Notes: generated by a model not told the origin, from the letters alone. Shown: positions 1,009 through 43,411, counted from the stretch's first letter. The stretch: 43,411 nt of DNA from a virus (IMGVR_UViG_2541047907_000004:1-43411); one strand, 5' to 3'. Program-made: numbers and translations.

Positions 1009-1083
1009 GTCCTCTTAGTTAAATGGATATAACGAGCCCCTCCTAAGGGCTAATTGCAGGTTCGATTCCTGCAGGGGACACCA
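1009..1083 (+). tRNA. argW: tRNA-Arg (anticodon CCU), argW
   Basis: 75-nt sequence GTCCTCT...CCTGCAGGGGACACCA; acceptor stem GTCCTCT pairs with AGGGGAC; T-loop TTCGATT; anticodon loop cCTCCTAAg gives anticodon CCU; encoded 3' CCA. Confidence 0.95.
1069..1083 (+). repeat. attL core: 15-bp CTGCAGGGGACACCA, the 3' end of argW, repeated exactly at attR
   Basis: Exact 15-bp direct repeat at 1069-1083 and 41708-41722, bracketing all phage genes; integrase adjacent. Confidence 0.75.
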
Positions 1084-1244
1084 TTTATCAGTTCGCTCCC
1101 ATCCGTACCAGTCCGCAAAATCCCCTGAATATCAAGCTTTCCGTAGATTTACAGTTCGTAATGGTTCGCGTCAGATCGTTGACAGCCGCACTCCATGACG
1201 GGTAAAAAGTGGATAAAATAATTTTACCCACCGGATTTTTACCC

Positions 1245-2402
1245 ATGCTCACCGTTAAGCAGATTGAAGCAGCAAAGCCGAAAGAAAAACCATACCGCCT
1301 TCTCGATGGTAATGGCCTGTACCTTTATGTCCCTGTATCAGGGAAAAAGGTATGGCAACTTCGCTACAAGATTGACGGTAAGGAGAAAATCCTGACTGTC
1401 GGAAAATATCCGCTTATGACTTTGCAGGAAGCAAGGGATAAAGCATGGACCGCGAGGAAAGACATCTCGGTTGGCATCGATCCGGTAAAGGCGAAAAAGG
1501 CTTCGTCTAACAACAATTCATTTAGTGCGATTTACAAGGAATGGTACGAGCACAAGAAGCAAGTCTGGTCAGTAGGCTATGCAACTGAACTTGCCAAAAT
1601 GTTTGATGACGACATTTTACCCATCATCGGCGGTCTTGAGATTCAGGATATTGAGCCGATGCAACTGCTGGAAGTAATCCGCAGATTTGAAGATCGCGGT
1701 GCAATGGAGCGAGCCAACAAAGCCCGCAGAAGATGCGGCGAGGTTTTCCGTTACGCTATTGTCACCGGCAGGGCTAAATATAACCCGGCACCTGACCTTG
1801 CTGACGCCATGAAGGGGTACCGCAAGAAGAACTTCCCGTTTCTTCCTGCAGACCAGATCCCGGCATTCAATAAAGCACTAGCAACATTTTCAGGAAGTAT
1901 CGTATCGCTCATTGCCACCAAGGTTTTACGCTACACTGCCCTAAGAACGAAAGAGCTTCGTTCCATGCTATGGAAGAACGTCGATTTTGAAAACAGGATT
2001 ATCACCATCGACGCCAGTGTGATGAAAGGACGCAAAATTCATGTGGTCCCGATGTCAGACCAGGTGGTTGAACTTCTCACTACGTTAAGCTCCATCACCA
2101 AACCAGTATCAGAGTTTGTTTTTGCCGGGCGCAACGATAAGAAGAAGCCAATCTGCGAAAATGCGGTACTGCTTGTGATCAAACAAATCGGCTATGAAGG
2201 TCTGGAAAGCGGTCACGGATTCAGGCATGAATTCAGCACGATTATGAACGAGCACGAATGGCCTGCTGACGCTATTGAAGTGCAACTGGCACATGCCAAC
2301 GGCGGATCTGTGCGTGGGATTTACAACCATGCTCAGTATCTCGATAAGCGCAGAGAAATGATGCAGTGGTGGGCGGATTGGCTTGATGAAAAGGTGGAGT
2401 AA
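1245..2402 (+). CDS. intS: Tyrosine integrase, P4-like family (IntS-like)
   Basis: 385-aa protein from ATG 1245 (MLTVKQIEAAKPKEKPYRLLDGNGLYLYV...), matching my memory of K-12 IntS; the longest ORF begins at GTG 1209; C-terminal catalytic region with conserved R...HxxR...Y pattern; directly downstream of argW. Confidence 0.9.
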   Translation: MLTVKQIEAAKPKEKPYRLLDGNGLYLYVPVSGKKVWQLRYKIDGKEKILTVGKYPLMTLQEARDKAWTARKDISVGIDPVKAKKASSNNNSFSAIYKEWYEHKKQVWSVGYATELAKMFDDDILPIIGGLEIQDIEPMQLLEVIRRFEDRGAMERANKARRRCGEVFRYAIVTGRAKYNPAPDLADAMKGYRKKNFPFLPADQIPAFNKALATFSGSIVSLIATKVLRYTALRTKELRSMLWKNVDFENRIITIDASVMKGRKIHVVPMSDQVVELLTTLSSITKPVSEFVFAGRNDKKKPICENAVLLVIKQIGYEGLESGHGFRHEFSTIMNEHEWPADAIEVQLAHANGGSVRGIYNHAQYLDKRREMMQWWADWLDEKVE

Positions 2403-28981: not shown

Positions 28982-29522
28982 AAGTGCTCCTTTCGTTGCC
29001 GGAAAAATCACCGTAATACTTATCTCGGGCTTCTTCAGCAACTAGTACCGCTAACTCCAGATCATCAAAGCATCCGAAGTGTTTACTCTTGCCATGGAAA
29101 CCTAGCCTAACATTCCATTTTTTCTGTCGTTTGTGCCAAGTAACTCCTCTGCAACCTGATTTGCTGTTCTTTCGGATCCTTATATTTCTTGAATTTTCTA
29201 TTGGCAGGCATTCTCTTAAATTTTCTGGCCTATTGTCGGTCCTAATTCCATTAACGTGGTCAATTTGACCAGCAGGCCAGCGATTATGAGTTATGTAAAA
29301 AACTAAGATGTGAGTTTTATATCTACGCCCATCTATCATGATCATTGAATAACCGTTGGAATCAAAAGTTCCAGCAACACTATTTAATGCTATCCTTCCC
29401 TGAGTGGGAACTTTCCATCTAAATACCCCGGTAGATTTATCGAAACTTAGTAACTCAAATATCCTTTTAACAGTTAAATCTTCTCTTTTACGGTTACATC
29501 GTCTTCGCGCTGGTTTAGCCAT
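28956..29522 (-). CDS. HNH homing-type endonuclease with C-terminal AP2-like DNA-binding domain
   Basis: 188 aa; HNH_3-like core ([16 protein letters not shown]...NRPENL) and AP2-like block ([31 protein letters not shown]); its first 9 codons MAKPARRRC equal the lambda NinG N-terminus. Confidence 0.75.
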
Positions 29523-33396: not shown

Positions 33397-33690
33397 TCAG
33401 AATTCCATCTGGATTTGTTCAGAACGCTCGGTTGCCGCCGGGCGTTTTTTATTGGTGAGAATCGAAGCAACTTGTCGTGCCAATCGAGCCATGTCGTCGT
33501 CGACGACACCCCATTCAAGAACAGCAAGCAGCATTGAGAACTTTGGAATCCAATCCCTCTTCCACCTGCTGATCTGCGACTTATCAACTCCCACAGCTTC
33601 CGCTGTCTTCTCAGTTCCAAGCATTGCGATTTTGTTAAGCAACGCACTCTCGATTCTTAGAGCCTCGTTGCGTTTGTTTGCACGAACCAT
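33397..33690 (-). CDS. cII: Transcriptional activator CII
   Basis: 97 aa MVRANKRNEALRIESALLNKIAMLGTEKTAEAVGVDKSQISRWKRDWIPKFSMLLAVLEWGVVDD..., essentially the remembered lambda CII; lambda-like RBS taaggaaatacttacatATG. Confidence 0.9.
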   Translation of the reverse strand: MVRANKRNEALRIESALLNKIAMLGTEKTAEAVGVDKSQISRWKRDWIPKFSMLLAVLEWGVVDDDMARLARQVASILTNKKRPAATERSEQIQMEF

Positions 33691-40246: not shown

Positions 40247-41026
40247 ATGGGCGCTATAACCAAAGAACGTATCAAATTATTCATTAAAAATCCGCTTGAT
40301 AACGGACTTACTCGTGGCGAACAAATGGAACTGGCACGAATTGCGCTGGCATCGCTGGAAGCAGAGCCAACAGGTGCATTCCACATTGCTGAACAGCAAG
40401 TTGACGGCACAAGTGACTATCTCAAGGATGGAGAATGGCCTATTGATAATGGGATTATTGAAGTCTACGCCGCTCCGCCAGTACCGGTAGTACCTGCTGC
40501 ATTACCTGAGAACGACGATGAGGACGGGCATGACATTGATTATCTTGAGCCATCTGAAGTTTACGCGCTTGGGCGAACAGCTGGCTGGAACTCCTGCCGC
40601 GCCGCCATGCTTCAGGCCGAACCTGTAAGTAATAGTGATGAGTTACCGCTGGACTATCTGCAAGGACACAAAGACGGCCTGGAGTGGGCTGCACAATTGG
40701 CAGAAGCCAATCATCCGCAAACAGGTGACTGGTTGTACGACGACTCAATCGATCTTGCCAGGGCGATTCGCAAAGGTCCGGATATGCCTACTGTTCAGGG
40801 TGGCAATTCTCCGGTAACTCCGGATGGTTGGATAAGCTGTAGTGAGCGAATGCCGGATACCAAAACAGCCGTTCTTGTTGCCGTGGAGTTTGACAGGAAA
40901 GGTGACTGGCGAATGAAATGGGCGACTTATATCCCGGGGCATCCTGACGCTAATGATGGGTGGTTAATTCCTGGTGCGTCGTGGAAACCGTCACACTGGA
41001 TGCCGCTACCAGAGCCTCCACTTTGA
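40247..41026 (+). CDS. DUF551-domain protein
   Basis: 259 aa from ATG 40247; C-terminal block PDGWISCSERMPDTKTAVLV...WKPSHWMPLPEPP fits the DUF551 signature as I recall it. Confidence 0.6.
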   Translation: MGAITKERIKLFIKNPLDNGLTRGEQMELARIALASLEAEPTGAFHIAEQQVDGTSDYLKDGEWPIDNGIIEVYAAPPVPVVPAALPENDDEDGHDIDYLEPSEVYALGRTAGWNSCRAAMLQAEPVSNSDELPLDYLQGHKDGLEWAAQLAEANHPQTGDWLYDDSIDLARAIRKGPDMPTVQGGNSPVTPDGWISCSERMPDTKTAVLVAVEFDRKGDWRMKWATYIPGHPDANDGWLIPGASWKPSHWMPLPEPPL

Positions 41027-41122
41027 AAGCGAAGCTTATACATATCTTTTACATCAGCAATCTATTGTTAATCTCCAATCAATGTTACGTTGTCATCTCT
41101 CTCATGCTTTGGAGGTAGTGAT

Positions 41123-41302
41123 ATGTCTTGTCCAAAATGCGGTTCTGGAAATATTGCAAAAGAAAAAACAATGCGTGGATGGTCTGGTGATTATGTGTGC
41201 TGCGATTGCGGATACAACGACTCTAAAGACGCATTTGGAGAGCGTGGTAAAAACGAGTTTGTTAAAATTAATAAAGAACGCGAAGGCAACGAAAAAAGCT
41301 AA
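41123..41302 (+). CDS. Small zinc-ribbon protein (59 aa)
   Basis: ATG downstream of GGAGG; CPKCGSG...CCDCGYND four-cysteine motif. Confidence 0.45.
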   Translation: MSCPKCGSGNIAKEKTMRGWSGDYVCCDCGYNDSKDAFGERGKNEFVKINKEREGNEKS

Positions 41303-41366
41303 TTTATTTATTCATATATGAAAACAATGTAACCAATATTCGAATTGAAGAACTGAAAGAACACCA

Positions 41367-41390
41367 AGCCGCCTGATGGCGGTTTTTTCT
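41367..41390 (+). terminator. Intrinsic terminator upstream of torI
   Basis: Hairpin agccgcc-tgat-ggcggtt followed by tttttt. Confidence 0.6.
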
Positions 41391-41398
41391 TGCCTGAT

Positions 41399-41414
41399 TT
41401 GCAGGTTCGATTCC
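41399..41414 (+). repeat. 16-bp copy of the argW T-arm segment (TTGCAGGTTCGATTCC), inside the prophage upstream of torI
   Basis: Exact match to tRNA positions 1054-1069, the segment immediately 5' of the att core in the tRNA; here separated from the attR core by 293 bp. Confidence 0.6.
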
Positions 41415-41433
41415 CTATTCGGAGATAGCACTC

Positions 41434-41634
41434 ATGCAACACGAACTACAGCCTGATTCCCTGGTTGATTTGAAATTCATCATGGCCGATACTGGCTTTG
41501 GTAAAACCTTCATCTACGACCGGATTAAGTCCGGCGACCTGCCAAAAGCCAAAGTTATCCACGGTCGAGCAAGATGGTTATATCGTGACCATTGTGAATT
41601 CAAAAATAAACTCTTAAGCCGCGCCAATGGGTAA
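41434..41634 (+). CDS. torI: Excisionase / recombination directionality factor TorI (AlpA-family winged helix)
   Basis: 66 aa MQHELQPDSLVDLKFIMADTGFGKTFIYDRIKSGDLPKAKVIHGRARWLYRDHCEFKNKLLSRANG, matching remembered K-12 TorI; located next to attR. Confidence 0.85.
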   Translation: MQHELQPDSLVDLKFIMADTGFGKTFIYDRIKSGDLPKAKVIHGRARWLYRDHCEFKNKLLSRANG

Positions 41635-41707
41635 AATAGCGGGTAAAATATTTCTCACATCTAAAAAACACCATTCCAGTCAATCCCCTGCCGCTTCAAG
41701 TAGATGT

Positions 41708-41722
41708 CTGCAGGGGACACCA
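41708..41722 (+). repeat. attR core (CTGCAGGGGACACCA)
   Basis: Exact 15-bp repeat of the tRNA 3' end including CCA. Confidence 0.75.
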
Positions 41723-42163
41723 GATACCCTTCAAACGAAATCTACCTTCACCCCGTAAAAGATGGGTTTGGCAGCACACTTGCCTTATATCTACTCATTT
41801 TTACTGCAACAGGTTGAAATCTCAGCACTGTCAGAAAGCGCTGATGACTAAACAGCCCTGAGCCGGGCGATGTAACCATCACACAGAATCCTGATAGCGA
41901 AATATGGCGTGACTCGATACTTCACTCCGCAATGCATTCCTTGATGAATTCGCAGGACCGTGATACACGGGACAGGTCACTGAATGACGACAATGTCCTG
42001 GAAATCAGCGAACCGCGCATCTGAAGTACATTTGAGCGACTGTACCAGAACATGAATGAGGCGTTTGGATTAGGCGATTATTAGCAGGGCTAAGCATTTT
42101 ACTATTATTATTTTCCGGTTGAGGGATATAGAGCTATCGACAACAACCGGAAAAAGTTTACGT

Positions 42164-43411
42164 CTATATTGCTGAAGGTACAGGCGTTTCCATAACTATT
42201 TGCTCGCGTTTTTTACTCAAGAAGAAAATGCCAAATAGCAACATCAGGCAGACAATACCCGAAATTGCGAAGAAAACTGTCTGGTAGCCTGCGTGGTCAA
42301 AGAGTATCCCAGTCGGCGTTGAAAGCAGCACAATCCCAAGCGAACTGGCAATTTGAAAACCAATCAGAAAGATCGTCGACGACAGGCGCTTATCAAAGTT
42401 TGCCACGCTGTATTTGAAGACGGATATGACACAAAGTGGAACCTCAATGGCATGTAACAACTTCACTAATGAAATAATCCAGGGGTTAACGAACAGCGCG
42501 CAGGAAAGGATACGCAACGCCATAATCACAACTCCGATAAGTAATGCATTTTTTGGCCCTACCCGATTCACAAAGAAAGGAATAATCGCCATGCACAGCG
42601 CTTCGAGTACCACCTGGAATGAGTTGAGATAACCATACAGGCGCGTTCCTACATCGTGTGATTCGAATAAACCTGCATAAAAGACAGGAAAAAGTTGTTG
42701 ATCAAAAATGTTATAGAAAGACCACGTCCCCACAATAAATATGACGAAAACCCAGAAGTTTCGATCCTTGAAAACTGCGATAAAATCCTCTTTTTTTACC
42801 CCTCCCGCATCTGCCGCTACGCACTGGTGATCCTTATCTTTAAAACGCATGTTGATCATCATAAATACAGCGCCAAATAGCGAGACCAACCAGAAGTTGA
42901 TATGGGGACTGATACTAAAAAATATGCCGGCAAAGAACGCGCCAATAGCATAGCCAAAAGATCCCCAGGCGCGCGCTGTTCCATATTCGAAATGAAAATT
43001 TCGCGCCATTTTTTCGGTGAAGCTATCAAGCAAACCGCATCCCGCCAGATACCCCAAGCCAAAAAATAGCGCCCCCAGAATTAGACCTACAGAAAAATTG
43101 CTTTGCAGTAACGGTTCATAAACGTAAATCATAAACGGTCCGGTCAAGACCAGGATGAAACTCATACACCAGATGAGCGGTTTCTTCAGACCGAGTTTAT
43201 CCTGAACGATGCCGTAGAACATCATAAATAGAATGCTGGTAAACTGGTTGACCGAATAAAGTGTACCTAATTCCGTCCCTGTCAACCCTAGATGTCCTTT
43301 CAGCCAAATAGCGTATAACGACCACCACAGCGACCAGGAAATAAAAAAGAGAAATGAGTAACTGGATGCAAAACGATAGTACGCATTTCTGAATGGAATA
43401 TTCAGTGCCAT
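42164..43411 (-). CDS. cscB: Sucrose:H+ symporter CscB (MFS, LacY-like oligosaccharide symporter family)
   Basis: Complete 415-aa ORF whose start codon is the last three bases of the window; 12-TM hydrophobic profile; MALNIPFRNAYYRFASSYSFLFFISWSLWWSLYAIWLKG... matches remembered CscB. Confidence 0.85.
   Translation of the reverse strand: MALNIPFRNAYYRFASSYSFLFFISWSLWWSLYAIWLKGHLGLTGTELGTLYSVNQFTSILFMMFYGIVQDKLGLKKPLIWCMSFILVLTGPFMIYVYEPLLQSNFSVGLILGALFFGLGYLAGCGLLDSFTEKMARNFHFEYGTARAWGSFGYAIGAFFAGIFFSISPHINFWLVSLFGAVFMMINMRFKDKDHQCVAADAGGVKKEDFIAVFKDRNFWVFVIFIVGTWSFYNIFDQQLFPVFYAGLFESHDVGTRLYGYLNSFQVVLEALCMAIIPFFVNRVGPKNALLIGVVIMALRILSCALFVNPWIISLVKLLHAIEVPLCVISVFKYSVANFDKRLSSTIFLIGFQIASSLGIVLLSTPTGILFDHAGYQTVFFAISGIVCLMLLFGIFFLSKKREQIVMETPVPSAI

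Follow-up and report, generated by a model that had tools for sequence, protein, structure and literature searches.

The argW prophage and its right end

The window, by which we mean the whole 43,411-nucleotide stretch analysed here, holds a full-length P22-like (HK620/Sf6-type) prophage inserted in argW. It carries the module found at argW in KplE1, HK620 and Sf6 (attL-intS ... torI-attR), with a 66-aa TorI and the same core. The features on which the analysis draws are:

1009-1083 (+): argW, tRNA-Arg(CCT), from ARAGORN and the sequence
1054-1069 (+): T-arm and variable-loop segment of argW, the source-like copy of the 16-mer, from the 16-mer search
1069-1083 (+): attL core CTGCAGGGGACACCA, from the core search and alignment with the empty argW site
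1089-1179 (+): P' arm with five published TorI sites, its placement inferred by transferring K-12 coordinates
1245-2402 (+): intS, integrase gene, with arm-binding, central and catalytic domains (Pfam); homologue of HK620 int
41090-41302: eaG-like ORF (zinc-ribbon), upstream of the terminator at the prophage right end
41366-41391 (+): intrinsic terminator after the eaG-like ORF, a stem (41366-41385) plus T-run
41399-41414 (+): 16-mer identical to argW 1054-1069, from the sequence search
41402-41414 (+): family-wide conserved 13-nt box CAGGTTCGATTCC, from the leader comparison
41421-41424 (+): torI Shine-Dalgarno GGAG, its predicted partner being TTCC at 41411-41414
41434-41634 (+): torI, recombination directionality factor (excisionase), 66 aa; matches HK620 hkaC and Sf6 gene 18
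41611-41745 (+): extent of the published minimal attR (PMC3509656 and primer mapping), holding arm repeats, T-loop remnant and core; its right end is given approximately, the right flank being unlike that in K-12
41629-41638 and 41641-41650 (+): two GGGTAAAATA repeats within the minimal attR
41695-41707 (+): diverged T-loop remnant TTCAAGTAGATGT, directly left of the core (TTCGATGT in most relatives)
41708-41722 (+): attR core CTGCAGGGGACACCA, 15 nt, from the core search and alignment with the empty argW site
42164-43411 (-): LacY-family sugar/proton symporter, in host DNA adjoining attR on the right

The right end thus runs from the eaG-like ORF through the terminator, torI, the P arm and the core into host DNA with the LacY-family permease, a protein that we take to resemble the sucrose permease CscB. 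In E. coli 2014C-4135 the empty argW site consists of the tRNA followed by GATACCCTTCAAACG...; joining the left side of attL to the right side of attR gives exactly this sequence, and the ends of the prophage are thereby confirmed. The permease flank also adjoins the empty argW site of this strain.

HK620, Sf6, Kapi1 and many E. coli prophages share 96-98% identity with the right-end segment, and the match to K-12 KplE1 begins at 41384 and continues rightward. The terminator module (41329-41392, at the end of the eaG-like ORF region) is mosaic; it is near-identical in P22 and many Stx phages and, according to the annotation of the P22 record L06296 (P22 eaG), is also common to lambda 29106-29165. 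An hkaB-like ORF of 43 aa (41627-41758, +) overlaps the end of torI and continues across the arm sites and the attR core to a stop in host DNA. Integration thus alters its C-terminus, and it is unlikely to be a real gene.

A second copy of the argW T-arm ahead of torI

The earlier note had described an exact 16-nt copy of the argW T-arm (tRNA positions 1054-1069) at 41399-41414, and the 16-mer search confirms it. In the window, TTGCAGGTTCGATTCC occurs only at these two places, both on the plus strand, even with two mismatches allowed; the copy at 41399-41414 lies 20 nt upstream of the torI ATG. All 16 positions match, against 0.02 matches predicted by shuffled sequences with two mismatches permitted, so a chance match is, as had been argued, very unlikely. 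Searches of the prophage for further copies of the box at up to three mismatches yielded none beyond chance. The core CTGCAGGGGACACCA is similarly restricted to 1069-1083 and 41708-41722 in the window, and the core search and the empty-site alignment agree that the attR core is the last 15 nt of argW. The 16-mer and core segments of the tRNA overlap by one base (1069), and at the right end 293 nt lie between 41414 and 41708. All coordinates given in the earlier note were correct, and the 16-mer indeed lies after a terminator (stem 41366-41385 and T-run) and before torI (41434-41634).

Not every base of the match has the same weight. Conservation across the wider family is limited to 13 of the 16 bases, CAGGTTCGATTCC (41402-41414). 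Many lineages, though not all, have the TT at 41399-41400, and the G at 41401 is replaced by A, C or T in other lineages. The base N of TTNCAGG (A, G, C or T by lineage) does not follow the host T-stem inferred from the core, and the E. coli G therefore carries no weight; in Edwardsiella and the L149 group the box has ACAGG beside a TGCAGG core. The 16/16 match consequently comprises 13 selected bases, two often-kept bases (TT) and one weightless base.

The attachment site keeps its own T-loop

It had been proposed that the 16-mer and the attR core are two halves of one tRNA copy, separated by torI. In the attP and attR sequences of relatives, a diverged T-loop copy directly adjoins the core on its left, ...TTCGATGT followed by ATGCAGGGG. 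The T-loop is retained there as AATTCGATGT followed by ATGCAGGGGAC; most relatives have (A/G)ATTCGATGT before ATGCAGGGGAC, and Klebsiella phage RCIP0114 has ATCAGGTTAGATGT before ATGCAGG at the core boundary. The E. coli version, TTCAAGTAGATGT followed by CTGCAGG, is the most eroded T-loop remnant. TTCGAT(G)T is kept directly left of the core in most relatives, and the tRNA copy of attP is uninterrupted at the core boundary. Because the tRNA-derived stretch of attP is continuous, the upstream 16-mer is a second, extra copy.

In-vitro excision works with a 135-bp attR of K-12 (Panis et al. 2012, PMC3509656 section 3.6), and its left primer, CTCTTAAGCCGCGCCAATGG, corresponds to window 41611-41630. 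With its last base at 41414, the 16-mer is 197 bp left of this start and so lies outside the DNA sufficient for in-vitro excision. The IntS arm-type repeats, GGGTAAAA(TA), are found at 41629-41650 and in attL. The suggestion that the 16-mer is a secondary att or Int arm-type site is not supported, since it lies outside the minimal attR and the GGGTAAAA repeats bear no resemblance to it.

Similarity to the tRNA downstream of the box is not significant. Semi-global alignment of 14 leaders to TGCAGGGGACACCAT gave P values of 0.03-0.7, none of which survives multiple-test correction, and the match past the box extends to two extra bases (TG) in Serratia and L015 alone. The idea of a decayed second core, in which the leader (box, GGAG and ACCATG) would be an eroded tRNA 3' half whose acceptor sequence GGGGAC became the torI ribosome-binding site, was rejected on these alignments, its scores against shuffles not being significant.

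Given that a T-loop adjoins the attP core, that the minimal attR excludes the 16-mer, and that the box is conserved before torI (see below), the split-copy reading is unsupported, and we are confident that the 16-mer is neither a split nor a functional component of the attachment site.

Two inverted repeats were observed around the core. CCCCTGC (41685-41691), which lies in the P arm and is kept in all relatives examined, is inversely complementary to GCAGGGG (41710-41716) of the core. An imperfect inverted repeat also surrounds AGGGGAC(A), formed by GATGTCTGC and the reverse complement of CCATTTATC. Such repeats would place the strand-exchange region in the acceptor-stem part of the core.

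A conserved box in torI leaders

TorI homologues were used to search species-representative genomes and IMG/VR. The 16-mer recurs in related elements as a conserved box: CAGGTTCGATTCC lies 4-7 nt before the GGAG of torI in Escherichia, Citrobacter-like elements, Erwinia, Pantoea and Edwardsiella, and 13 nt before it in Serratia. The alignment of right ends and of the empty argW site that the earlier note had called for fixes the prophage ends and shows the box kept in relatives. Box-bearing elements encode TorI proteins that are 74-100% identical, and their upstream genes are unrelated. Within E. coli, two unrelated upstream terminator modules (one of the yfdT type) are joined to the same torI leader at the T-run, which indicates that the left edge of the torI module is the terminator T-run and that the box travels with torI.

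When 22 distinct leaders are compared, 11 positions of the box show conservation of 90% or more; the loop varies freely, and so does the spacer that separates the ribosome-binding site from the ATG. Across 16 lineages the box has a mean pairwise identity of 0.91, against 0.88 at torI codon positions 1 and 2 and 0.60 at position 3, a comparison from which purifying selection on the box appears likely. A box that is under such selection, and that shifts with torI among unrelated contexts, would be no neutral relic. The relic reading, in which the 16-mer is either what is left, without function, of a longer attP tRNA copy split by the torI module or else a secondary att site, draws on the exact identity to argW, the shared orientation, and the fact that this segment abuts the core segment in the tRNA. 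However, attP has its own T-loop remnant contiguous with the core, tRNA similarity past the box is not significant, and the box lies outside the minimal attR; moreover, it is as conserved across genera as non-synonymous codon positions and goes with torI, not with the flanking module. The conservation pattern largely refutes the relic reading as judged from these comparisons, and we regard it as highly improbable.

The box varies in copy number and in detail. Some lineages have an extra T (ATTTCC), two elements (L131 and L156) have a box without one G, CAGTTCGATTTCC, and Erwinia-type phages have two boxes in tandem:

L003 1985-2014, and L110, L111 and L112 1456-1484: tandem boxes CAGGTTCGATTCCC, 16-bp period
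L114 about 1455-1480: two shorter boxes, GTTCGATTCCC and GTTCGATTACC, 13-bp period

The tandem boxes are identical to each other in three diverged Erwinia phages (Midgardsormr38, L110 and L111). Several lineages have no box, including the viable phages Klebsiella RCIP0114 and Erwinia vB_EhrS_49; the box is therefore dispensable. It is also absent upstream of xis in Proteus-type TorI relatives (L023 2992-4567; L136-L140), where xis is followed by a convergent integrase gene and then by tRNA-Arg(CCT) on the opposite strand.

E. coli and Proteus alike have the 13-mer as the T-arm of their tRNA-Arg(CCU) (the Proteus T-arm reads ACAGGTTCGATTCCTGT), and flanking bases are also tRNA-like, with the TT of the variable loop kept on the 5' side in most lineages and TG on the 3' side in Serratia and Pantoea L015. 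Descent from tRNA-Arg(CCU) is the most economical account of these matches, and it seems reasonably probable that the box was copied from that gene long ago. Of the origin proposed earlier, the tRNA-Arg(CCU) source is thus plausible; the insertion of torI into a former tRNA copy does not fit, the attP copy being continuous. As a weak test, IMG/VR was scanned for GGTTCGAATCC..GGAG..ATG: 102 of the 121 matches listed are real tRNAs, and no TorI-like ORF lies downstream of the motif among the matches listed.

The torI leader as a proposed control element

In KplE1-type prophages the integrase is constantly made at a low level, and TorI production essentially triggers excision (Panis 2010, PMC2951348). 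The same paper calls the promoter and control of torI uncharacterised and argues that excision control targets the gene for the recombination directionality factor (RDF). In the window, a sigma-70 scan of 41000-41800 found no sigma-70-like site and no -35/-10 pair. An N-terminal extension of torI or an upstream ORF across the box was sought as well; the stretch from the in-frame TGA at 41395-41397 to the ATG contains no start codon.

Our best explanation, held tentatively and at somewhat less than even confidence, is that the 16-mer represents, in E. coli, a 13-bp T-arm-like box of the torI leader, a selected cis element that would act in the following way. With no recognisable promoter of its own, torI would be reached by read-through of the upstream terminator. 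In the read-through RNA the 3' part of the box (UUCC, or UUCGA) would pair with the Shine-Dalgarno GGAG 4-7 nt downstream, and the UUCC:GGAG pairing would keep translation of the excisionase low. The untranslated torI RNA could also become open to Rho, such that stray transcription in the lysogen would not trigger excision. The idea of Rho termination reportedly comes from a KplE1 study in PNAS in 2013. Occlusion of the ribosome-binding site is, on the predicted folds, the likeliest single mechanism, albeit a doubtful one when taken by itself.

Several features of the leaders are consistent with occlusion. UUCC or UUUCC stands 4-7 nt before GGAG in all box-bearing leaders, the exception being Serratia with a gap of 13 nt, and in about 17 of 21 leaders the predicted minimum-energy fold contains the same inner helix, AUUCC/GGAG; a longer predicted fold pairs UUCGA (41407-41411) with the torI GGAG instead. 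On average the ribosome-binding site has a predicted pairing of about 0.83-0.85, compared with 0.44 for 25 other genes of the window and with about 0.3-0.7 in homologues without the box. Helix-strengthening variants occur as well (a U-to-C change in L147 and the extra U of the Citrobacter type).

Other results fit a helix less well. RNAalifold returned no consensus structure and no pairs on 22 leaders, and no double compensatory changes were found in the leader helix. The window leader is no more stable than its shuffles (z = +0.44; P = 0.83 on shuffling the spacer and 0.23 on shuffling the box), and just the Citrobacter-like and L015 leaders reach a fold P of about 0.01-0.05. For the Serratia and Edwardsiella leaders the minimum-energy prediction is instead a T-arm-like hairpin in which the ribosome-binding site stays open, and the tandem boxes of Erwinia are not needed by simple occlusion. 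The 5' strand of the helix is constant, including a CG that is predicted to be unpaired, which resembles sequence-specific recognition by a protein more than it does a helix. An outer helix, GGUU/AACC, closing just before the AUG was also considered and rejected; its significance was confined to the Citrobacter-like and L015 leaders and did not extend to those of the window, Erwinia, Serratia or Edwardsiella. An Rfam scan of 41200-41800 gave nothing but noise below threshold (STnc130 scored 23.8 bits, the threshold being 55, and isrK 14.2 against 50).

Factors that could read the box

Since the box is contiguously invariant, sequence-specific recognition by another factor stays a serious alternative to occlusion. 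One candidate is TorI itself, whose five sites in the P' arm we placed from K-12 coordinates and the published 8-nt/12-nt/2-nt spacing (PMC2951348), anchored on the intS ATG at 1245:

1089-1096 (+): TorI site I1, CAGTTCGC
1109-1116 (+): TorI site I2, CAGTCCGC
1152-1159 (+): TorI site I3, CAGTTCGT
1162-1169 (+): TorI site I4, TGGTTCGC
1172-1179 (+): TorI site I5, CAGATCGT

TorI sites have cores of GTTCG, GATCG or GTCCG, and TorI represses the intS promoter, PintS, via I4 and I5 (PMC2951348). The box contains GGTTCGA, and as a DNA operator it would let TorI bind GTTCG and repress or block its own gene as it does at PintS. The invariant CG of the box fits the invariant CG of all TorI sites, the L131 and L156 boxes read CAGTTCGA, which shares seven of eight positions with site I1, and the tandem boxes of the Erwinia phages and L114 resemble repeated TorI binding sites. 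The flanks of the core do not fit, however. Compared with the 8-bp site (C/T)A-GTTCG-(C/T), the box has the GTTCG core and an A at both flanking positions, whereas among 40 anchored TorI sites from eight P' arms position -2 is C or T in 39 and position +5 in all 40. Nor does the arrangement: the boxes repeat with periods of 16 and 13 bp against the 10-bp spacing of I3-I5, and TorI binding is highly cooperative over five sites (PMC3509656), yet most leaders have a single box. More indirectly, the attL fragments of the TorI binding studies contain these 16 bp within their tRNA part, and just I1-I5 were reported for them (PMC2951348, PMC3509656). By its sequence the box is a poor TorI site; binding is possible but not favoured, and we consider a TorI operator unlikely.

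A promoter reading is suggested by the records of two related phages. In HK620 (AF335538) the annotation gives a promoter for 'phage integration' as well as a cII site, TTGCCTGATTTGC, which corresponds to window 41390-41402, and Sf6 (AF547987) has pI annotated at the equivalent place. On that reading the stretch would be a cII-activated pI promoter with a transcript running through attP into int, and the 16-mer would be the spacer plus the second TTGC repeat. However, the TTGC repeats of the leader are N5-spaced, against N6 at the prophage's own lambda-type site (33668-33681), and K-12 and many other copies have TTAC in place of the first TTGC, which Erwinia, Edwardsiella and Serratia lack. 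The scan found no -35/-10 pair, the sequence at the hexamer positions is variable among lineages, and the conserved part would be the promoter spacer, normally the least constrained. A pI promoter at this place is accordingly very unlikely. The lambda-type site itself, TTGCGTTTGTTTGC (33668-33681, +), has the form TTGC-N6-TTGC of lambda cII sites and is probably the activator site for pRE of the prophage.

The box might instead be read as a T-arm look-alike by IntS, as a pseudo-core or decoy for the left half-site of attB, or by a host T-arm-binding protein. The invariant block is contiguous over 13 bp with flanks free to vary, and as RNA it is the canonical T-loop sequence (GGUUCGAUUCC). In most relatives TTCGAT is also held at the same register left of the attP core, which suggests that IntS reads that part of the T-loop. 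On the other side, the box lacks the TGC and overlap bases that come next in attB, reaches 7 nt further left than the half-site inferred from attP symmetry, and is excluded from the 135-bp attR (from 41611) that supports in-vitro excision; in the E. coli leader, just 2 bp of a T-stem can form. We judge recognition of this kind to be quite improbable. A broader proposal, for which we see only a slim chance, is that a T-arm copy of the target tRNA was taken over as a control site of the excisionase gene and is read by a trans-acting factor, perhaps a recombination protein or else a host enzyme that binds T-arms (TruB or TrmA, for example) and would act on the mRNA. If this were true, excisionase output would be tied to occupancy by the factor, an undescribed mode of control of a recombination directionality factor.

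Relation to known systems

The box probably helps to control excisionase expression. A 13-bp element beside the ribosome-binding site of torI, present in at least six genera, is a concrete and easily mutated candidate for the missing control of this gene. Because some viable phages do without the box, its effect is probably modulatory. The analysis corrects two ideas about this stretch: that it remains from a split attachment site, and that it is the cII/pI promoter of the HK620 and Sf6 annotations.

The module itself is well studied; what the sequence comparison would add is that the leader of an excisionase gene contains a conserved element which, unusually, looks like the T-arm of the very tRNA that the phage targets. 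The window shares with the KplE1/HK620/Sf6 module the leader, the five TorI sites adjoining intS and the GGGTAAAA arm repeats, whereas the published att maps do not include the leader box, which lies 197 bp outside the minimal attR. The box is unmentioned in the literature searched.

In its identity to the target tRNA, its orientation and its nearness to att, the box is like the attP copies of tRNA 3' ends in phages that integrate into tRNA genes. It differs from them in being additional and non-contiguous and in comprising only the 5' strand and loop of the T-arm, whereas the true attP copy consists of the core with the diverged T-loop beside it; it is also almost invariant, unlike the region left of the crossover in attP copies. 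Its tRNA origin, if correct, would exemplify the reuse of a tRNA fragment as regulatory DNA or RNA.

Control elements near xis or int genes and attP are also found in lambda, in the pI/cII control of int and in sib retroregulation. In contrast to pI/cII, the cII repeat spacing and promoter hexamers are neither matched nor conserved here, and the box lies upstream of the RDF gene, not within that gene. Hairpins that sequester ribosome-binding sites, such as translational operators and RNA thermometers, offer a closer parallel, in that UUCC lies 4-7 nt upstream of GGAG and pairing between them is predicted in most variants; unlike these, the box leader has no covariation and no excess stability in E. 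coli, and bases predicted to be unpaired are conserved.

Autoregulation by RDFs and their down-regulation of integrase genes (TorI at PintS; P4 Vis) likewise involve a GTTCG-containing sequence before a gene of the recombination module. Here, by contrast, the flanks of the box break the pyrimidine rule of TorI sites, and most lineages have one site. Site I1 with its flank, CAGTTCGCTCCCATCC (1089-1104), resembles the leader box with its flank, CAGGTTCGATTCCCTATTC (41402-41420), and TorI sites (CAGTTCG) are one G apart from the 5' half of the T-arm, CAGGTTCG. From this likeness, it is a possibility that the TorI site array descends from T-arm copies.
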